Below, piece after piece: positions 8,225-45,050 of a DNA stretch of 64,000 bases (positions are counted from its first letter, which is position 1; every line of letters begins with the position of its first letter). A program made the translations under genes and the position numbers. Origin of the DNA: an uncultured Gammaproteobacteria bacterium (lineage in GTDB: Bacteria; Pseudomonadota; Gammaproteobacteria; Methylococcales; Methylomonadaceae); contig CAWFEF010000004.1 in assembly GCA_963814825.1 (NCBI GenBank), positions 455,556 to 519,555 on the forward strand, written 5' to 3'. The notes under the pieces were generated by a model. That model was not told the origin of the DNA. It made no database searches and saw only the letters and a program-made list of their open reading frames with translations.

Positions 8225-8404
8225 CGTCATTCCGGCAGGGAAGCCGGAATCCAGGCACAGGGACGTGAGCCTATGGTCTGGCTTGCCGGTCTGCATGAAT
8301 ATATAGGTAAGGAGCGGAAGCTTCGAGTCTAAATCATGCACAACGGTATCGGTAAGTTACCATCCATGGCTCTGGATACCGGTATCCATGCCGGTATGAC
8401 GGTG
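8225..8404. repeat. MITE-like element, copy 1, with imperfect terminal inverted repeats CGTCATTCCGGCAGGG...CCATGCCGGTATGACG
   Basis: A second, shorter copy lies at 34724-34826 with the same ends and the same internal blocks (TGCCGGAATCCAG, GGTAAG, ATACCGG). Confidence 0.5.
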
Positions 8405-8489
8405 TTGGCTGAATCAGATGATAAATAATCGCCAAAGTACAAAGCGTGCTTTATGCTTACCCGTTTTAACGATATAAAAACTGACCTTT

Positions 8490-9146
8490 ATGGAAATTAT
8501 TTACTTTTTATTGCATTTGCTCAAAGACCCGCTGACGACGCTGCAAGATTTTCTGGCGCATTACGAGATGCTCACTTATGCAATTTTGGTTGCGATAATT
8601 TTTGTTGAAACGGGCCTAATCATCATGCCGCTGTTGCCCGGCGATTCGTTGCTGTTTGCGGTGGGGCTGTTGGCGTCATCGACCGGAAAGCTGGATATTC
8701 AAATCATCATTCCGTTGCTGATAAGCGCGGCTTTGCTGGGCGACAATGTCAATCACTTCGTCGGCAAGCATTTTAGTAAGTTCGTTAAATCGCGGGAACA
8801 AATTCTATTTTTTAAGCGGGAATACATCACCCAAACCGAAGAGTTCTACGACAAACACGGCGGCAAAGCCGTTATCATGGCCCGCTTCGTGCCGATCATC
8901 CGCACCATCGCTCCTTTCGTCGCCGGTGCGGGCAGCATGAAATACTCAAAATACATTATTTTTTGTATCATCGGCGCGACCTTATGGGTTACCAGCATCA
9001 CCTTAACCGGATATTTCTTAGGCTCGAATGAATGGGTCAAACACAATTTCGAGAAGATCGTTTTGGGTATTGTTTTCGTGTCGTTCATGCCGATGGTTTG
9101 GCAGTTTGCAAAAGTTAAATTGCTTAAACAGTCGCAGTCCATTTAG
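8490..9146 (+). CDS. DedA-family (VTT/SNARE-associated) inner-membrane protein
   Basis: The product contains the characteristic PLLPGDSLLFAVGLL and HGGKAVIMARFVPIIRTIAPFVAGAGSM motifs. Confidence 0.8.
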   Translation: MEIIYFLLHLLKDPLTTLQDFLAHYEMLTYAILVAIIFVETGLIIMPLLPGDSLLFAVGLLASSTGKLDIQIIIPLLISAALLGDNVNHFVGKHFSKFVKSREQILFFKREYITQTEEFYDKHGGKAVIMARFVPIIRTIAPFVAGAGSMKYSKYIIFCIIGATLWVTSITLTGYFLGSNEWVKHNFEKIVLGIVFVSFMPMVWQFAKVKLLKQSQSI

Positions 9147-9206
9147 TTATCGTGCCGAGTAAAATACGGCGTTGTCCGGAATCTGACTATAACAAATACA
9201 TCACCG

Positions 9207-9998
9207 ATGTTTAAAAAGGTAATTCCCCTGATGTTTTTATTTAACAGCGACGGCGGCCAAGCCGGCCGGAATTTAACGCCTACGGGTGACGAGGCGAGTC
9301 CGCTCGTGCAAAAAATGCGAGCATTGTTAGCAGCCTTGGCCGGCGAAGAACAGCCGCGCTTTGTCGGTGGATTGTTATTGATTTTGGTGCTGCTGCTGCA
9401 CGTATGGCTAGGCCTTTGGCTGTTAAAACCGGCCGATGCACCCCCTCCTGCTTCATCGCAGATCATCATGGAAGTATCGCTGGTTTCCATGCCGAATCAA
9501 CAAGCGCCGGTTACACCGCCGGCGCCGCCAAAACCAGAGCCGCCGAAAAAGGAACCGGCCAAAATTCCGGTCAAGAAAAAAACGCCGATTATACCTAAAC
9601 AGGCGGAGCTGCCAAAACCGCAGCCTGTTACCGACGAAAAGCCTTCGCCCATGCCGATAGCGCCGGTTGTGGCGCCGCAACCCGTTAGTCGGCCGGCGCC
9701 GGTAGTCAGCACCGAACCGAAAATCAGCACCGGCGTCGTTCCGTTGGAGCGAGTGCCGCCGAAGTATCCTGCGCGTGCGGCTGACCGTCATATCGAAGGC
9801 TGGGTTAAAATCGAGTTTACGATTACCACGGATGGCAGCGTTGAAAATGCCGCCGTTGTCGAGGCTGAGCCCGAAGACGTTTTTGACGAGGCCGCGCTAA
9901 GGGCTATTAATCAATGGCGCTTCAAAGAAAAAATAGTAAACGGTGTAGCCGTTGAACAGCGCGCAGTTCAGACGCTGCAATTTAAATTAACACAATAA
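9207..9998 (+). CDS. tonB: TonB energy transducer; the true start may be the ATG near 9316
   Basis: An N-terminal transmembrane helix is followed by a Pro-rich spacer (PPAPPKPEPPKKEP...) and a C-terminal TonB domain (GWVKIEFTITTDGSVENAAVVEAEP...EAALRAINQWRFK). Confidence 0.8.
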   Translation: MFKKVIPLMFLFNSDGGQAGRNLTPTGDEASPLVQKMRALLAALAGEEQPRFVGGLLLILVLLLHVWLGLWLLKPADAPPPASSQIIMEVSLVSMPNQQAPVTPPAPPKPEPPKKEPAKIPVKKKTPIIPKQAELPKPQPVTDEKPSPMPIAPVVAPQPVSRPAPVVSTEPKISTGVVPLERVPPKYPARAADRHIEGWVKIEFTITTDGSVENAAVVEAEPEDVFDEAALRAINQWRFKEKIVNGVAVEQRAVQTLQFKLTQ

Positions 9999-10132
9999 TT
10001 GATTTACGGTTTACCGGCCTAGATTGGTCTTGCCAAGACAAACTCCAGCCGGTAGCTTCGAACAAAAAATCAGCAGTCAGTTTGATGATTGCACCCCTTA
10101 ATTTTATTTGACTAACTAGACAGGAGATTTTA

Positions 10133-11214: not shown

Positions 11215-11611
11215 CTCCTTTCTTTCAAGAGTCATAAAACCACGAAGAAGCCGGCATAAAAAAATCCGAATTCTTCGCGGTTGTTGATTATTTGTATACA
11301 CTCTATATACAAAATCGCACATTGATTAGCGAAAATTTTTAGTCTACTTTCATTCGATGCGTGTCGGAGCAGTGATGCCGATCTTATCGATTAGGTGTAT
11401 ATTAAGCCCCCGCCTTTAGACCTTTTGTACGAAAAAACCTATGCGAATTCAATTTTTGAAGTGTTTTATCCATTTTGTTTATATTAAGTAATGCGTTATT
11501 GCTTATTAAAACGCACTTACCTTTAAACACATTGAATAAAAAACAGCTTTCGCTATGCGTAAAAACAACCAACAGCTTTTGTTCAATTTTGCTTGCCGCT
11601 TAAGGAAAAAA

Positions 11612-33353: not shown

Positions 33354-34578
33354 TTATCCCTTAACACAAACCACCTGTTTCAAGGTATGCACAATCTCAA
33401 CCAAATCCGCCTGCGCTGCCATCACCGCTTCAATAGGCTTGTAGGCGGAAGGCGTTTCGTCGATCACCTCTTCATCCTTACGGCATTCCACGCCTGCCGT
33501 GGCTTGAATATGCTCGGCCAAGGACACCAGCTTTTTCGCTTGGGTGCGCGACATAACCCGCCCTGCGCCGTGGCTGCAACTGCAAAAACTTTCTTCGTTG
33601 CCCAAACCGCGCACAATGAAGGATTTGGCGCCCATGCTGCCGGGAATAATCCCCATTTCACCCAGCTTGGCGCTGACCGCGCCTTTCCGGGTAACCAGCA
33701 CGTTTTTATCGTAATGATGCTCACGGCTGATATAGTTGTGATGACAGTTAACCGCTTCCAGCTCTGCGCTAAACGGTACCGGCAACATGTCCCGTATCGC
33801 GCTTAACACGTTGTTCATCATGATTACCCGGTTGGCAAGCGCAAAATCCTGCGCCCAGCTCACCGCTTCCAGATAGTTTTTAAAATGCTCGCTGCCTTCG
33901 GGAATGTAGGCCAAATCTTTATCGGGCAGATGGATAAACCAGCGTTCCATATCTTTTTTAGCCAGCTCGATAAAGTGCGTCCCGATCCGGTTGCCGACAC
34001 CGCGCGAACCGCTATGCAACATCACCCAAACTGCATCCGCCTCATCCAGGCAAATCTCGATAAAATGATTGCCTGTTCCTAACGTACCCAAATGGTTGAG
34101 GTTGTTGGTGTTTTTCAAGCACGGATGTTTTTGGCATAACCGTTCAAAGCCCTCATTTAACAGCAGCCAAGCCTGCACAACGTCTTCAGGCGGTTGGCCC
34201 CAGCTACCGGTATCGCGCACTTTAAAATTGGCAACGCGGCCATGCGGCACGCGTTTTTCAATCTCGTTGCGTAACGCGGTCAACGAATCGGGCAGTTGCG
34301 CGGCGGTTAAAGCTGGTTTTAGTCGCCATCATGCCGCAGCCCAAATCCACACCCACCGCAGCCGGAATCACCGCGCCGACGGTAGGAATGACGCTGCCGA
34401 TCGTCGCGCCTTTACCCAGATGGACATCGGGCATTACCGCGATCCATTTGTGAATAAACGGCAGCCCGGCGATATTCAGCAATTGTTGCTTGGAGTTTTC
34501 ATCAAAGCTTACGCCGCGTGTCCATGCCTTAACAGGATAGTGACCTTGTTCGTGTAAGACTTCGTAGGAGCTAGTCAT
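33354..34578 (-). CDS. rtcB: RNA-splicing ligase RtcB (408 aa) carrying one frameshift near 34270
   Basis: The motifs GMMATKTSF...HKWIAVMPDVHLGKGATIGSV...HSGSRGVGN...NCHHNY and the metal-binding histidines are present across two frames. Confidence 0.8.
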
Positions 34579-34940: not shown

Positions 34941-36532
34941 ATGGATACAGTCATCATCGGCATTTTAGGATCTCGCCTGGATCACGGCGGTTTGGGTAGC
35001 AGACGGCACGAACGCTGGCGGCCCAGCATCTCGTTATTGATGCACGATAACCTGCCAGTCGATGAGTTTGTGTTGATCCATCATGCCGATGAACAACAAC
35101 TCGCCACCTTGACGCTCAACGATATGGCGGCCATGTCTCCGCAAATACGGCTGACACCTTATCAAGTCGATTATGAAAACCCTTGGGACTTTGAACAGGT
35201 TTATAGCCAGCTGCACGAATTCACCCGCAGCTATCATTTCGATCCCGAACAGCATGATTATTATGTCCACATCACCACCGGCACCCATGTCGCGCAAATC
35301 TGTTTGTATCTGCTGACCGAAGCCAACTACATTCCGGCCAAGTTGCTGCAAACCTCGCCAAGCAAGGAAGGCGTGCAAGGTTGCTATCAAGTCATCGATT
35401 TGGATTTATCGCGCTACGATCAAATCGCCTCGCGCTTTGCCCGTGAAGCCCAAGACGGCATTGCTTATTTAAAAGGCGGCATAACAACGCATAATCCTGC
35501 GTTTAATACATTGATCTCCCAACTGGAGCATGTATCGATCAAATCGTCGGCGCCGATGTTGTTAACAGGCCCGACAGGCGCCGGAAAATCGCGGCTGGCA
35601 AAACGCATTTACGAACTGAAAAAACAGCGCGGCTTGGTGACCGGCAAATTGGTGGAAGTCAATTGCGCGATCTTGCGCGGCGATAACGCGATGTCGGCTT
35701 TATTCGGCCATGTGCGAGGCGCTTATACCGGCGCTTTGACTCAGCGCATGGGCTTATTGCGCGAAGCCGATAAAGGCTTGCTGTTTTTAGATGAAATCGG
35801 CGAATTGGGCCTCGACGAACAAGCCATGCTGCTGCGTGCGATTGAAGATAAAGTGTTTATGCCATTGGGCAGCGATCAGGAAGTCGGCAGCGATTTTCAA
35901 TTGATAGTCGGAACTAACCGCGATTTGTTCGAACAAGTACAACGGGGGTTGTTTCGTGAAGATTTGTTGGCGCGGATTAATTTATGGACCTATCAACTGC
36001 CCTCGCTGAAACAACGCATCGAAGATTTAGAGCCCAATATTGAACACGAGCTGCAACAATTTACGATTAAAGCAGGCTATAAAGTCAGCTTTAACAAAGC
36101 CGCTCGCGAACAGTATTTAAAGTTTGCCCGTTCAGCAACAGGCGCTATGGCGAGCGAATTTCCGGGATTTAAATTCCAGCATTACCCGCATGGCAACCTT
36201 GGCAACGGGCGGGCGCATTACCGAAGAACTGGTGGGCGAAGAAATCAGCCGCTTGCAGTACGCTTGGTCAGGTTTCAGCCAGCAAGCCGGTTGACGATGG
36301 ACTTGCCGCCGTATTGTCGGCGCAAGCCTTGGCGGAGTTGGATTTATTCGACCGTTTGCAACTTGCCGAAGTAGTGCGCGTCTGCCGCGCCAGTCGCAGC
36401 TTGGCCGAGGCGGGACGGGTTTTGTTCAATCATAGCCGCACCCAAAAAGCCAGCGCCAATGACTCGCACCGGCTTAAGCAATATTTACAGAAGTTTGGCT
36501 TGGAGTTTCAGGGGATTGTAAAAAGCTCGTAA
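34941..36532 (+). CDS. rtcR: Sigma-54-dependent transcriptional activator RtcR (CARF-like N-terminus plus AAA+ domain) with a frameshift near 36320
   Basis: The AAA+ sigma-54 activation domain carries TGPTGAGKS and LLFLDEIGELGLDEQAMLLRAIEDKVFMPLGSD. The C-terminal HTH piece lies in the next frame. Confidence 0.8.
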
Positions 36533-40117: not shown

Positions 40118-40627
40118 CTATTCTGCGTTTATTTCGACATTAGTAATGACCTCTGCGAGTAAAGCCGGACGAATATGCAAAGTCGTTTGCTTTGGAATGT
40201 CTCGCAACAATGCCAACACCTCGGATTTTGACCGAGATTGCCTGCGTATCGCTCTGATTAACAGACCCAACGTGCCATGCGCAGTGATACTCAGACTTTT
40301 TGCGGCAAGCCGCGCCGCTGTGTCATCGGTCAACAACAAACAATCGCCGTATTCGACACACAAATGCAAGGCTTCTTGCTCACCGGCATGTAATGTATAG
40401 AGCGGCGTCAACGCCTTAACCAATTGGGAAGACTGTCTTGCAGATCGTCGAATAAGCAGTGCATTTTCAGCCATCAATGCTTGTGGGCGATGGTTTTGCA
40501 CCTCAAGCCAAACCGCTTCGGGTACGATTACGCGGCCAAAATCGGCCAAAAGATCAAGACAACCCAGCTCATCCAGATGAATGATAGGCCCCGCATCAGC
40601 AATGACGACCGGGCTAGTCTTGCCCAT
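40118..40627 (-). CDS. PIN-domain toxin (DUF3368-type VapC-like ribonuclease)
   Basis: The blocks VVIADAGPIIHL...CLLLTDD...AHGTLGLLIRAI match the PIN family. The gene overlaps the upstream antitoxin gene by about 14 bp. Confidence 0.65.
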   Translation of the reverse strand: MGKTSPVVIADAGPIIHLDELGCLDLLADFGRVIVPEAVWLEVQNHRPQALMAENALLIRRSARQSSQLVKALTPLYTLHAGEQEALHLCVEYGDCLLLTDDTAARLAAKSLSITAHGTLGLLIRAIRRQSRSKSEVLALLRDIPKQTTLHIRPALLAEVITNVEINAE

Positions 40628-40811
40628 GCAAGCCCCAGTCAACATCATCGAGAATGAAGCGCTCGTTCATCGTTTCAAGGTGGGATTCCAGATAACGGCG
40701 GACGGATTCGGCAATCAATTCATCCATATTGGCAACCCAACCCTGCTGTACCATGTATTGTGCTTGTTGCCAGAGTTGGTCGGGGATTTCTGTTTTTACG
40801 GTGGTGCTCAT
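40614..40811 (-). CDS. Ribbon-helix-helix antitoxin (ParD/CopG-like), 66 aa
   Basis: The sequence MSTTVKTEIPDQLWQQAQYMVQQGWVANMDELIAESVRRYLESHLE resembles ParD, and the gene is coupled to the PIN gene. Confidence 0.55.
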   Translation of the reverse strand: MSTTVKTEIPDQLWQQAQYMVQQGWVANMDELIAESVRRYLESHLETMNERFILDDVDWGLHGQD

Positions 40812-41018
40812 GATTGTTATGCCTCTGATAAGCTGTAACCGAAAATAAGACTGGAAAAATTCGGATTGGGCGTAAGCGAAAGAGCCAATTGTATAATACC
40901 GGAAAATGAAAGCTACCATTTACATGGATTAACAGAATGAACAGGATAAAGGAATATCTGGTTAGTTCCGCATCGTATCGTTGACTGCGTATTTTGCGAT
41001 AAGGTTTCGTGCAGTTTT

Positions 41019-42028: not shown

Positions 42029-42124
42029 TAGTTCCGTAGGTCGGGCATGCTGTTTATGCCCGACAATCAGATAGGCTAATAGTGTCGGGCAACGAAAAAG
42101 CTGTTGCCCGGTCTACGCACTACG
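42027..42124. repeat. Family-2 repeat, copy 2: hairpin TCGGGCATgctgtttATGCCCGA followed by hairpin CGGGCAACgaaaaagctGTTGCCCG
   Basis: It is nearly identical to copy 3 over about 90 bp. Confidence 0.55.
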
Positions 42125-42168
42125 TCCGCTGAAGACGTTGTTAAATGCGAATCATTGAATACCTTGCT

Positions 42169-42197
42169 CCTCGTTCCCACGCAGCGCGTGGGAACGA
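42169..42197. repeat. REP-like palindrome, family 6: CTCGTTCCCACGCAGCGCGTGGGAACGAG
   Basis: It is a perfect 12-bp-arm palindrome, and related units lie at 44911-44938 and 45021-45048. Confidence 0.5.
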
Positions 42198-42212
42198 GAT
42201 AAAAAGCGCTGG

Positions 42213-42320
42213 ATTGGTTTGATAGTCCCGTGGGCCGGGCATGCTGTTTATGCCCGACAATCAGATATGCTAATAGTGTCGGGCAACGAAAAAGCTGTTG
42301 CCCTATCTACAAGGCTGCAT
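42213..42320. repeat. Family-2 repeat, copy 3, abutting the 3' end of the NACHT gene
   Basis: Identity to copy 2 was established by direct comparison. Confidence 0.55.
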
Positions 42321-42334
42321 AAGGCAAAACAAAA

Positions 42335-44290
42335 TCACAAGTCCCTGGCAACATGAAAAAAAGGCCCATTTTCATGTAAGAGCTTCTCAGCATTTAATCT
42401 GTCTAGAGAAGAAAGTTCTCTCAAAAGAGCCATATTAAGTCTTTGCGATTTAATTCGAATATTATCGGTTCCATATCTAAATGTTAATCTCGATTCGAGG
42501 CCAGAAGGAATCAGCATTTTTTCGAAAAGAATCCAGTTCGCTTCGTCTTCATTCGAGTAGTCGTCTATGAAGCCAATAAGGGAGGCATACTCTAATTCTG
42601 CATCGTCAGCTAAACGATAATCTATTCCCGTTAAGATCGACAACTGGTTGACACAGTATCTTGCTAAGATATATGGAGAATCTAAAAACTCCAGGTTCTT
42701 AAAATTTTCTGAAGTAAGAGCCTTTTTAAATTGTAATAAACTGGATATTTCTACAATTTTGTCATAAGTAAGCTTATTTTTACTCAGGGCAAAAGGTTTA
42801 CTAAATTGCTCCTTCTGTTCCAAACTTAATTGGGTGAACCGCCTATCTTCATCCTCCAGAAGATCCATCTGTAAATAATCCGACTGAGAATCTATCGGCG
42901 GAATAATCATCATGTCAGGACCTAAGTTGCCGTTCGCCAATTTATCTTGAAAAATGAATTGATCAAGTTTCAACCCTTGCCAGTTAAAACTAAAAAAGAC
43001 TCTCGGAATTAATGAGCTATCGAAACAACGTATAAAACTGATTATTTGAGCTGTAAGTTTAGGTAATGGAAACGGCGAATTATCCAATGGACACAGTTGC
43101 CAGTCAGGTACTAAAGTTTCCATACAAGCAGCATTAGCCACAAAAAATTCCTGAATACTGTAATGGGCAAAACGATAATCCCTGTTGGAGGTTCGATTCA
43201 GCAGCGAACGACCGCCAAAATCCAGGTGTTTCAGGTGAAAGACGGCAGGCAGTTTAGCGATTAATTGTGCTAATTCGCTTTCCGGTAAGGCTCGCTTTCC
43301 TAAAGACTGTAAATATACTGCGACTAGGCGGCAGGCCGCCCAGAGATCACGTTCATTCGGAACCGATTTAATATTCTGACTCTCCATCTTGCGTATCTCC
43401 CGTCGCAACCAGACTTTCACAAGAGCCTCGTAGATTGTATAGCTGTTCCAGCGGGTTTGCTCTGACTCTAGCAAATCTTCCACGTGGGCCAGTAATAAAG
43501 GCCGAAATTGCAATGACTGCATTGAGTGCAACAATTTTTCAGCCTGTTCCCGGCGCGGATCGGCTTTCTTAAACAAAGGAATCCCGGTATCTGGGAAACG
43601 TTTAATGAGATAGGAATGGACTTGACTATTGTCAAATAGCGACAGGAAGATCATTGGACAGGTGTAGGCACCAACTACGACTCGTCCGGGTCGACCAAAG
43701 GAGTCTAGGCCAGTATCGGGAAAGAACTGGGTACGGCAGGATATAAGCACATGGCGGAAATTTGTGCTGGCCTCCAGTATTTCCTGTAACCGATCAGCTA
43801 TGCGACCACGGGCCAACGGGTCTTCGTCAAGGGCATCCAGGAGCAATACTGTTTTGGCTTTATTTGGTTGTGTACTTATTCGTTCCAAGGTGTTTTCGCT
43901 AAGTTTGAGCAGCAGACAATCGTAATCTTTCGGCCAAAATGACAGCATTTGGCTTAATTTGAGCATCATTAAGAGAGAGGTTTTACCCATACCAGCATCT
44001 GCCAATACGAACATCTGGTTGCGACCGTCACGTTCGACTGTATCACGTTCTAAAAAATGGTTGATTGTTTTGAATATCCCTGACCTTACGAAGGAGCAGA
44101 TACTATCTTCGTCATAATCCGTAGGGTTGTGTTGTTGACAGTCAGGTTGAATATAGTATTGGGCGAGTGTTCGTGGGTCACCAAATGTGTCGGTTATTAC
44201 GTCGAATTCCTTATCTCGTGTTTCCCAAATTTTGGTCAACTTCTTGTAAAGTGGTTTAATCAGTTTGGTAGATATGAATGGCTCGGACAT
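42335..44290 (-). CDS. NACHT/STAND-type P-loop NTPase (651 aa) with a short N-terminal region and an unassigned 250-aa C-terminal region; candidate bNACHT/Avs-like defense protein
   Basis: Walker A VLADAGMGKTSLLMML and the NACHT-type Walker B KTVLLLDALDE are present. The gene is markedly AT-rich (about 38-40 % GC) compared with neighbours at about 55 %. It is flanked by repeat families 2 and 6 and by toxin-antitoxin modules. Confidence 0.65.
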   Translation of the reverse strand: MSEPFISTKLIKPLYKKLTKIWETRDKEFDVITDTFGDPRTLAQYYIQPDCQQHNPTDYDEDSICSFVRSGIFKTINHFLERDTVERDGRNQMFVLADAGMGKTSLLMMLKLSQMLSFWPKDYDCLLLKLSENTLERISTQPNKAKTVLLLDALDEDPLARGRIADRLQEILEASTNFRHVLISCRTQFFPDTGLDSFGRPGRVVVGAYTCPMIFLSLFDNSQVHSYLIKRFPDTGIPLFKKADPRREQAEKLLHSMQSLQFRPLLLAHVEDLLESEQTRWNSYTIYEALVKVWLRREIRKMESQNIKSVPNERDLWAACRLVAVYLQSLGKRALPESELAQLIAKLPAVFHLKHLDFGGRSLLNRTSNRDYRFAHYSIQEFFVANAACMETLVPDWQLCPLDNSPFPLPKLTAQIISFIRCFDSSLIPRVFFSFNWQGLKLDQFIFQDKLANGNLGPDMMIIPPIDSQSDYLQMDLLEDEDRRFTQLSLEQKEQFSKPFALSKNKLTYDKIVEISSLLQFKKALTSENFKNLEFLDSPYILARYCVNQLSILTGIDYRLADDAELEYASLIGFIDDYSNEDEANWILFEKMLIPSGLESRLTFRYGTDNIRIKSQRLNMALLRELSSLDRLNAEKLLHENGPFFHVARDL

Positions 44291-44656
44291 GGTTTTACCG
44301 TCACATTGTTTTTGGTATTTGAAAAAATAAAGACTGTAGAGCTTAGGATGATTCGCCGTTGGGTAACTGCTCGCCTACGGCAGGCTGTCATTTAAATGCG
44401 ATGATTAGTAAATTGTAACGCTGTTAGGCGGATTTGCGCTAGCCTCGTAGGGTGCGCACCGTGCACCACTTACGGATTTTAGAATCTCAACGACCTCGAG
44501 AAAAGCGCGCGATGCATTCCCTATGTAGCTTGTCTCGTATGAAAAAGGCAACATATACTATGGTTTAAGCGGTTTTTTCTTTAGACTTAATCACTCTCGT
44601 TAAATTTTAGCCTTGATAATACTTCCATGAATCCTTCTAACGTTACTACTGAATAC

Positions 44657-44904: not shown

Positions 44905-45050
44905 GCTTGCCTCGTTCCCACGCGCTGCGTGGGAATGCAGTCAAGGCGAGCTGCGCCGCAAGTCCCTGTAAACGCCGAAATACAGAGAACCTCAACGTAG
45001 GACGCAGCGCGTCCCATATCGCATTCCCACGCAGCGCGTGGGAACGAGGC
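44905..45050. repeat. Cluster of family-6 palindromic units: two inverted GTTCCCACGC-GCGTGGGAA(C/T)G units plus GGACGCAGCGCGTCC
   Basis: The units lie at 44911-44938, 45001-45015 and 45021-45048, and the second unit is the reverse complement of the first. Confidence 0.5.

Follow-up and report, generated by a model that had tools for sequence, protein, structure and literature searches.

What is the 651-residue NTPase encoded at positions 42335 to 44290 of a 64,000-nucleotide stretch of an uncultured gammaproteobacterial genome (contig CAWFEF010000004.1; this whole stretch is called the window below), and does it constitute a phage defense system of its own? A sequence-only reading had proposed that it does, describing a low-GC NTPase of the NACHT/STAND (signal transduction ATPases with numerous domains) type with a C-terminal region that it could not assign and a domain combination that it could not place. 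Our analysis leads to a different answer. The protein is probably a NACHT-like STAND NTPase descended from a published receptor family, in which the NTPase is joined to a formylglycine-generating enzyme (FGE)-sulfatase domain, abbreviated FGS, that is the target of diversity-generating retroelements (DGRs). In this Methylobacter lineage, the protein would have been orphaned from its DGR, and its sensor would have decayed.

The argument starts from the C-terminal tail (residues 456 to 651), which is laid out within the gene as follows:

42335..44290, minus strand: complete ATG-initiated open reading frame (ORF) of 651 aa, from the ORF list; STAND (NACHT-like) NTPase with a vestigial FGS/C-type-lectin (CLec) C-terminus
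42551..42925, minus strand: vestigial N-terminal half of the FGS domain, residues 456-580, with blocks GPDMMIIPP, FALSK, and YRLADDAELEYASLIG
42359..42550, minus strand: hypervariable, poorly predicted segment, residues 581-644, which replaces the GNVWEW...RGGSW...RSAxR core
42338..42358, minus strand: last FGS beta-strand, residues 645-651 (FHVARDL), a strand at 647-650 in the AlphaFold2 (AF2) model, aligned to the family terminus

A homologue search returned 1147 proteins. Hundreds of these, at 40 to 50% identity over ~88% of the query, carry a C-terminal FGE-sulfatase domain (PF03781) at the position of the tail. The domain is present in 39 of the 43 members that were aligned, and the four exceptions make up the query clade, a tight group consisting of P0001 (identical), P0002 (93%; Methylobacter sp.), P0003 (75%), and P0004 (68%). 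In the 43-sequence alignment, the query tail aligns column for column with the FGE domain, and four of its blocks can be set against the family consensus:

GPDMMIIPP in the query; GPEMvvIPaG in the family
FALSKNKLT in the query; FALGRYPVT in the family
YCVNQLSILTGIDYRLADDAELEYASLIG in the query; YCxWLSxxTGxxYRLPTEAEWEYAARAG in the family
FHVARDL (terminal) in the query; GFRLAR in the family

The terminal strand, whose counterpart in relatives is GFRLAR, is kept in all four clade members, and the FGS core of ~55 residues (GNVWEW...RVxRGGSW...RSAxR) is missing from all four. The segment that stands in its place (residues 581-644) is modeled with a predicted local distance difference test (pLDDT) score of 34 to 50, shows 39 to 46% amino acid identity within the clade, and has undergone 4 to 8 in-frame indels. 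Alignment of the clade tails to FGE domains by hhalign gave a probability of 98.5% (E = 1.6e-15), with residues 452-580 matching FGE positions 1-117 of 228, and BLASTP alignments to P0006 and P0016 extend to residue ~585. Direct annotation failed, as the isolated query tail retrieved no Pfam match at E <= 10 (the FGE-sulfatase domain of P0006 scores 2e-55); the domain was therefore identified through its homologue context. Foldseek ranked FGE-type proteins first, with matches that were not significant. Judged by these alignments, the region previously left unassigned is a decayed, C-type-lectin-fold FGS domain, of which half is retained. By descent, the domain combination that could not be placed belongs to the published STAND NTPase-FGS family of DGR targets.

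A canonical member of this family comprises an N-terminal module of ~90 aa, nucleotide-binding, helical, and winged-helix domains (NBD-HD-WHD), a linker, and a C-terminal FGS domain. The last ~38 residues of that domain form the variable region (VR), rewritten by an adjacent or trans-acting DGR composed of bAvd, a reverse transcriptase (RT), and a template repeat (TR). One relative, P0006, is 50% identical to the query over 590 aa and 64% identical in the NTPase chassis. Its gene (loci L004 to L006) lies directly upstream of bAvd (PF22296), an RVT_1 RT, and a second target that combines TIR and FGE domains. For P0018 (L007), bAvd is directly downstream, at the contig end. Within L004, a 113-nt repeat joins a VR at 8278-8390, the 3' end of the STAND-FGE gene, to a TR at 9912-10024, just after the RT gene. 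Mismatches between the two fall at TR adenines in 19 of 21 cases, and AAC codons are abundant in the TR; the pair bears the canonical DGR signature. The VR corresponds to residues 645-682 of P0006 (RRVLCGGSW...GFRLAQD), a segment that the query clade lacks except for its final strand. Among 80 genomic loci, bAvd and/or RT genes were also found directly downstream in L010, L011, L015, L018, and L022 to L024, and L084 contains an RT. In most of the remaining FGE-bearing loci, neither gene lies within 6 kb.

Two observations on these relatives are of separate interest. The region 6346-11628 of L004, and likewise L005 and L006, holds a complete DGR with the STAND-FGE and TIR-FGE genes as targets (VR of the latter near 11509) and one common TR, a compact case in which one DGR diversifies both a sensor NTPase and an effector-type TIR protein. 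Elsewhere, bAvd-like fragments lie downstream of STAND-FGE genes at L022 8164-8283 and L023 8155-8340, with no RT detected within 6 kb. The latter two may be degenerate DGR loci, intermediate between loci of the P0006 type and the query.

At the query locus, tblastn searches with the bAvd and RT proteins of L004 and L007 found neither in the 64-kb window (best E, 0.054). Neither gene occurs at the syntenic locus of a second Methylobacter genome (L001), and neither the window nor 22 kb of L001 contained a TR-like copy of the tail. With its FGS domain incomplete and with neither a VR/TR pair nor a local RT and bAvd, the query is therefore a descendant of the DGR-target family and not a functioning member of it. 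In a neighbor-joining (NJ) tree with bootstrap built on chassis residues 32-385, the query clade is monophyletic (100%) and nested in FGE-bearing lineages, where it groups with P0006 and P0009 (97% bootstrap). This nesting indicates that the VR-less, DGR-less state is derived. Within the query lineage, the connection to the DGR would have been lost and the VR-bearing half of the FGS domain deleted or replaced.

The remainder of the protein has evolved very differently from its tail. Pairwise dN/dS (Nei-Gojobori) among the four clade members is 0.05 to 0.16 over residues 1-400 (0.06 to 0.09 in the N-terminal module), 0.06 to 0.5 over the linker (residues 401-455; highest in comparisons with P0004), and 0.43 to 0.98 over the tail. 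These ratios indicate strong purifying selection on residues 1-455 and point to a chassis that is clearly functional. Because all four lineages (dS ~0.5 to 1.1) already carry the degenerate tail, the chassis has been kept since the VR was lost. By the same measure, the remaining half-domain drifts almost neutrally, weakly constrained, with its frame and terminal strand kept. Open it certainly stays: at the observed nucleotide divergence of 37 to 41%, random substitution leaves 196 codons free of stops in <=0.02% of simulations, and the indels (4 to 8 events per pair) are all in frame. The five alternative frames of the tail contain 6 to 19 stops each. We considered whether the tail is untranslated or dead sequence and rejected this on the strength of the stop-codon simulation and the in-frame indels. 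Conserved blocks in the clade tails (GPxMxxxPP, LQMxLLED, FALS, YRLxxxxELxYASxxGFI, and RxARDL) alternate with hypervariable stretches. The protein probably needs its tail as a C-terminal cap that is folded, its last strand pairing with its first and its surface little constrained.

Base composition follows the same division. The gene has a GC content of 0.421, whereas the window averages 0.483, and it ranks at the 0.2nd percentile among windows of the same length, in agreement with the low GC content noted from the sequence alone, but the deviation is not gene-wide. The tail (last ~196 codons) stands at 0.369 (1.3rd percentile), near the local intergenic range of 0.38 to 0.42, whereas the first 455 codons, at 0.443 (12th percentile), are unremarkable. 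Horizontal acquisition was considered as the source of the low GC content and rejected, as the 5' two-thirds are ordinary, a second strain carries the gene in synteny, and the low GC content is concentrated in the relaxed tail. The low GC content thus reflects relaxed constraint on a decayed tail and not foreign origin.

Comparison with L001 further resolved two features at the 3' end of the gene:

42030..43025, no strand assigned: mosaic segment of ~1 kb, comprising the sensor tail and the 3' intergenic region, with 95 to 99% sliding-window identity to Methylobacter L001
42077..42256, no strand assigned: insertion in the 3' intergenic region, ~190 nt by comparison with L001, containing a repetitive extragenic palindromic (REP)-like palindrome at 42173-42195

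Between the two strains, the tail has a dS of 0.043 and a dN of 0.042, and identity in the 3' intergenic region is ~95%; dS is 0.25 to 0.32 in the first 455 codons and 0.36 to 0.38 in the TauE, P450, and CstA genes. These values suggest that recombination has recently exchanged a sensor-tail cassette of ~1 kb between strains. The 22 substitutions that separate the query tail from that of P0002 (L001), 16 of them transitions, are spread over the tail and do not have the DGR spectrum. On this mutation spectrum and the absence of a TR, the tail was rejected as a live DGR variable region. The insertion is flanked by a direct duplication of ~85 nt (42030-42109 and 42225-42303). Its palindrome, GTTCCCACGCGCTGCGTGGGAAC, recurs at 44914-44936 and 45023-45045, upstream of the gene and between the Unstab_antitox and VapB genes; no copies are expected by chance. 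The location of the gene between repeats, recorded by the sequence-only reading, is accordingly borne out.

Upstream of the tail, the protein is organized as follows:

44027..44290, minus strand: conserved N-terminal module, residues 1-88, with a long helix at 8-36 and a helix at 39-45 (AF2)
43091..44026, minus strand: NTPase chassis, residues 89-400, with nucleotide-binding, helical, and winged-helix domains
43976..43996, minus strand: Walker A (P-loop) AGMGKTS, residues 99-105, read from the sequence
43820..43849, minus strand: Walker B VLLLDALDED, residues 148-157, read from the sequence
42926..43090, minus strand: linker from winged helix to sensor, residues 401-455, helical (AF2 helix 414-434)

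The ORF and its Walker motifs (GMGKTS at 100-105 and LLLDALDE) were confirmed, and the motif columns proved to be family-invariant. Over the 43 aligned members, invariance extends to A99-T104 in Walker A, with S105 nearly so, and to L149-L154, E156, and D157 in Walker B. Both motifs have the STAND form (GxxGxGK[ST] and hhhhD[GA]hDE, the latter with two acidic residues), and R186 and the winged-helix H376 are likewise intact in the query. The core adopts a NACHT-like fold, with Avs3 among its structural matches, and the NBD-helical-winged-helix architecture superimposes on solved structures of nucleotide-binding leucine-rich repeat (NLR) and STAND proteins. Motifs and fold together uphold the assignment to the NACHT/STAND type. 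All Pfam matches of the whole protein fall below threshold: 18.8 bits for NPHP3_N (cutoff, 24.8), 15.7 for nSTAND3 (27.2), and 11.9 for NACHT (PF05729; 26.7). Among the 43 family members, nSTAND3 is the best match, with 17 members against 6 for NACHT, all under threshold. A PDB sequence search with the whole protein gave no matches. Structure and motifs justify calling the protein a NACHT-like STAND NTPase; no curated sequence model was passed. Neither did the protein fall into a housekeeping AAA or KAP family with conserved non-defense synteny: Pfam found no KAP match and only weak AAA_16 similarity in the query and the 43 members, and neighboring genes differ among family members. The linker is conserved with FGE-bearing relatives (BLASTP).

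The N-terminal segment, previously put at ~95 aa, does comprise ~90 residues ahead of the P-loop strand. Its motif is FGDPxxLAxYYxxPxCQxxNPxDxxED, with F36, P49, Q52, N55, P56, and E61 invariant in the 43-member alignment, and in the AF2 model it consists of ~45 residues of helix followed by NBD-proximal elements. Residues 1-92 have no Pfam match, and no known domain or enzymatic features were recognized in the module. No fused effector domain (nuclease, TIR, SIR2, protease, or pore former) was found by Pfam or AF2, and none of the 43 members matches the effector-associated domain (EAD) or bDLD models of Pfam. Under the EAD principle (Kaur 2020, 2021), an adaptor of this type would recur joined to effectors in other proteins. 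A profile of residues 1-88 retrieved only 22 short fragments without Pfam effector domains; the word-indexed search missed full-length members, so that its sensitivity is doubtful. Some proteins consist of this module only, in some cases with the start of the NTPase, such as the 171-aa P0121 of Methylomonas sp. HYX-M1 (complete genome). They are probably what remains of truncated family members in other methanotrophs. The neighbors of P0002, P0006, P0018, and P0043 were compared in search of an effector gene conserved as a partner; this possibility was rejected, as they share only DGR parts.

How such a protein might work can be sketched by analogy. It would act as an ADP/ATP-gated oligomerizing switch, and, because Walker A, Walker B, R186, and H376 are intact, the switch presumably still works. 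In relatives with a complete sensor, and on the model of NLRs, Avs proteins, and the published predictions for STAND-FGS proteins, the C-terminal domain would normally bind an invader-derived ligand and so release autoinhibition. Release of the lock would be followed by nucleotide exchange, oligomerization, and clustering of the N-terminal modules, which might then signal to a partner or to the membrane. Without the ligand-binding tip, the query clade could represent a fixed-specificity or remodeled sensor, a helper that assembles with paralogues, or a switch under another form of gating. We infer that the protein is now either a fixed, non-hypermutating receptor or a sensor-impaired one.

Several points weigh against descent from a DGR target followed by decay. 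Of the FGE-bearing loci whose flanks are long enough, only about one in five has an adjacent DGR, which makes it likely, not proven, that the direct ancestor was linked to a DGR; the low fraction fits the statement of PMC8195603, in its treatment of the family, that the DGR can be located next to its target or at another site in the genome. A trans-acting DGR may also lie elsewhere in this genome, beyond the visible 64 kb. The dN/dS ratios come from four sequences only, dS is near saturation in the deeper pairs, and the alignment of the hypervariable stretches is uncertain. The C-terminal part of the AF2 model is of low confidence (pLDDT, 58), and its fold match is biased because the multiple sequence alignment given to AF2 contained FGE domains. 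Oligomerization and signaling are argued from analogy. Finally, the kept frame and conserved blocks may mean that the tail has gained a new, noncanonical function instead of simply decaying.

This last point leads to the first of five alternatives. The query clade could be a natural transition from a DGR-hypermutated, "adaptive-like" receptor to a germline-fixed, "innate-like" one, that is, a functional, DGR-independent sensor or helper NLR. Here, with the NLR-like chassis kept under strong selection after loss of the VR and the retroelement, the remodeled half-lectin tail, with its new insert of ~65 aa, would evolve by point mutation, in-frame indels, and exchange of the ~1-kb cassette between strains by homologous recombination. 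We advance this idea tentatively and regard it as unlikely.

An unlikely alternative is that proposed initially, a self-contained, single-gene antiphage NLR of the bNACHT/Avs kind, in which the C-terminus would be a diversifying sensor of phage proteins and the N-terminal module the effector. The NACHT-like fold with Avs3 among its matches is in its favor, as is a weak, P-loop-only similarity to the NCBIfam model for EruA, an antiphage NACHT protein (E = 2e-5; 22.8 bits against a cutoff of 1000). So are a tail that evolves fast yet in frame, as an arms-race sensor would, the recent exchange of a ~1-kb sensor segment between strains, the toxin-antitoxin (TA) modules and a PADLOC candidate nearby, and the predicted role of the wider family in conflict. 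However, the whole protein matched 0 PADLOC families at E <= 1, no enzymatic or pore-forming effector domain was found, and the VR-bearing half of the sensor, the part that would bind ligand and set specificity, is deleted. The latest divergence of the tail also looks neutral (dN/dS, 0.98; 16 of 22 substitutions are transitions). Homologues were absent from phage collections, and plasmid collections gave one match only, on a Paraburkholderia megaplasmid. We thus found no positive support for the single-gene antiphage candidate, a reading that is weakened, being neither supported nor refuted.

The surroundings of the gene also bear on this alternative, as the sequence-only reading had likened them to a defense island. 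TauE flanks the gene on one side; on the other lie Unstab_antitox, VapB/PIN, and an antitoxin/ParE pair, followed by CstA. The TA modules reported around the gene are therefore real and are joined by a PIN-like candidate. This 176-aa protein (40118-40648, within 40118-40919) matches the PADLOC candidate PDC-S70 (E = 3e-25) and overlaps a 101-aa upstream partner ORF; neither has a Pfam match, and the two are probably another TA-like pair. The wider neighbors encode H+-PPase, acetolactate synthase, IlvC, SPFH, RtcB/RtcR, MgtC, P450, aldolase, CheB/CheR-PAS, and GGDEF-EAL proteins. In the second Methylobacter genome (L001), the same chromosomal slot between TauE and CstA holds the gene, which thus remains chromosomal and syntenic amid housekeeping genes in two strains. 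The setting is a small TA cluster amid mainly housekeeping genes and not a canonical defense island, a description that had been overstated.

Other observations on the neighborhood stand apart from this question. In L001, the STAND gene is separated from the TA cluster by Flavodoxin_1 and Alanine_zipper genes (8272-9357), which are absent from positions 44291-44626 of the window. The TA complement differs as well, with MazE/PIN in L001 and VapBC and ParDE-like modules in the window; the slot upstream of the gene is variable in content. Farther away, the RtcR ORF (window 34941-36532) matches only positions 2-408 of the 523-position PADLOC RtcR model before continuing in an unrelated frame, and a 72-aa ORF (36314-36532) that overlaps its 3' end may hold the remaining RtcR in another frame. 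The match of the RtcB ORF (33354-34283) is limited to positions 108-426 of 426. Either the Rtc RNA-repair module seems to have suffered frameshifts or truncations, or the sequence contains errors.

Quite unlikely, in our estimate, is a third alternative, that of a non-defense signaling or helper NTPase that co-oligomerizes with full-length, DGR-diversified paralogues, as a helper NLR would, or senses an endogenous or environmental ligand. It would account for a chassis that is strongly conserved while the sensor is impaired, and it sits well with a stable, housekeeping genomic context. Some homologues, moreover, match only the first ~385 query residues and end in pentapeptide repeats or Roc-COR. 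Pentapeptide repeats follow the same chassis in P0067 and others (e.g., L033, L037, and L041), and a Roc-COR C-terminus follows it in P0039 (1124 aa), which is nested within the FGE-bearing clade in the NJ tree. Alternative C-termini on a constant chassis suggest modular swapping of sensors, and the swappable FGS, pentapeptide-repeat, and Roc-COR ends suggest a generic signaling scaffold. Where PMC8195603 discusses these proteins, organisms often hold several NTPase-FGS paralogues. Nevertheless, no paralogue is visible in the 64-kb window, helper-type STANDs have no experimental precedent in bacteria within the STAND-FGS family, and no conserved neighbor points to a pathway.

We consider it very unlikely that decay extends to the gene as a whole, which would make it a relic on the way to becoming a pseudogene after loss of the DGR. 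The tail is indeed degenerate, close to neutral, and intergenic-like in GC content, and N-terminal fragments of the family occur in other genomes (e.g., the 171-aa P0121 in Methylomonas). A scan for promoters and terminators around the gene was uninformative, with counts at shuffle expectation, nothing convincing, and no strong Shine-Dalgarno sequence. Against decay of the whole gene stand the low dN/dS of residues 1-400 (0.05 to 0.16) across lineages at dS ~0.5 to 1.1 that all have the degenerate tail, the intact state of all catalytic and family-invariant residues, and an ORF that is open in four of four lineages, tail included. Least credible of all is that a remote DGR still rewrites an unrecognized tail VR in trans and thereby explains the high dN/dS: trans-acting DGRs and degenerate loci without machinery are documented for the family in the relevant parts of PMC8195603 and PMC10907252, most FGE-bearing relatives lack an adjacent RT, and tail dN/dS is near 1, but the canonical VR segment (RGGSW...GFRLAR) is physically missing, the changes between the query and P0002 are mostly transitions across the tail and not A-to-N changes at AAC codons, a TR-like repeat is absent both from the window and from 22 kb of L001, and the GC content and A-richness of the tail resemble drift toward intergenic composition.

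Descent from a DGR-targeted receptor with subsequent loss of the DGR and decay of the sensor thus remains our preferred account, and it places the locus in a known context. The STAND NTPase-FGS architecture, with variable N-terminal EADs or effectors and with DGR coupling that is adjacent or remote, is described in the sections of Kaur et al. (2021, eLife, PMC8195603) devoted to it. STAND-FGS/CLec targets (DGR clade 5D) appear again in Dore et al. (2024, PNAS, PMC10907252), in whose account of the family no STAND-CLec member had been experimentally tested. As far as these portions of the two papers go, such targets belong to multicellular and aggregating bacteria. FGE-sulfatase-like sensors are also listed in a 2026 STAND survey (PMC13581612). 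The family studied here, sampled over 80 genomic loci, occurs in Competibacteraceae, Methylococcaceae, cable bacteria, and Thiotrichales, among others, and these hosts overlap the taxa highlighted for DGR clade 5 in PMC10907252. A literature search found no description of a lineage that has lost the VR-bearing half of its FGS domain while the chassis stays under purifying selection. STAND-CLec proteins diversified by DGRs have been put forward as bacterial counterparts of antigen receptors that hypermutate. The locus adds to this that a lineage can lose both the hypermutation machinery and the variable sensor tip while strong selection on the NLR-like chassis persists, so that some function of the chassis is independent of DGR diversification. 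The value of the case is mainly corrective, in that an apparently novel domain combination resolves to a degenerate member of a published family. In addition, the query clade may serve as a natural "sensor-minus" control for dissecting the roles of the N-terminal module and the NTPase.

Compared with the STAND NTPase-FGS targets, the query is homologous in its N-terminal module, NBD-HD-WHD, and linker (50% identity to P0006 overall and 64% in the chassis), is homologous to the FGS domain over its first half and last strand, and shares the same host range. It differs in having no VR-bearing core of ~55 aa, no Pfam-detectable FGE-sulfatase domain, a nearly neutral tail, and no adjacent bAvd, RT, or TR. 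Unlike bNACHT and Avs proteins and the eukaryotic NLRs NLRP3 and NOD2, the query has no PADLOC, bNACHT, or Avs match, and its NACHT and nSTAND3 scores are below threshold. It also lacks a nuclease, TIR, SIR2, or protease effector, and its sensor is a decayed lectin fold instead of TPR, LRR, or WD40 repeats. With the FGE-type CLec proteins diversified by DGRs (TvpA of Treponema, 2y3c; Mtd of a Bordetella phage, 1yu0; and TaqVP of Thermus, 5vf4), about half of the fold is alignable; the ligand-binding surface that holds the VR in those proteins is absent from the query, as is a TR/VR pair. A further comparison is offered by the "degenerate" DGR loci of Thiohalocapsa PB-PSB1, which PMC10907252, in the part that deals with them, describes as having missing or pseudogenized machinery. 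Like these, the query is a DGR-family target without a local RT or Avd. The PB-PSB1 loci, however, keep an intact VR that can be served in trans, whereas in the query the VR is gone and the NTPase chassis is still selected. The locus is thus a degenerate, DGR-orphaned variant of a published receptor family rather than a new stand-alone antiphage system, and its novelty is modest.

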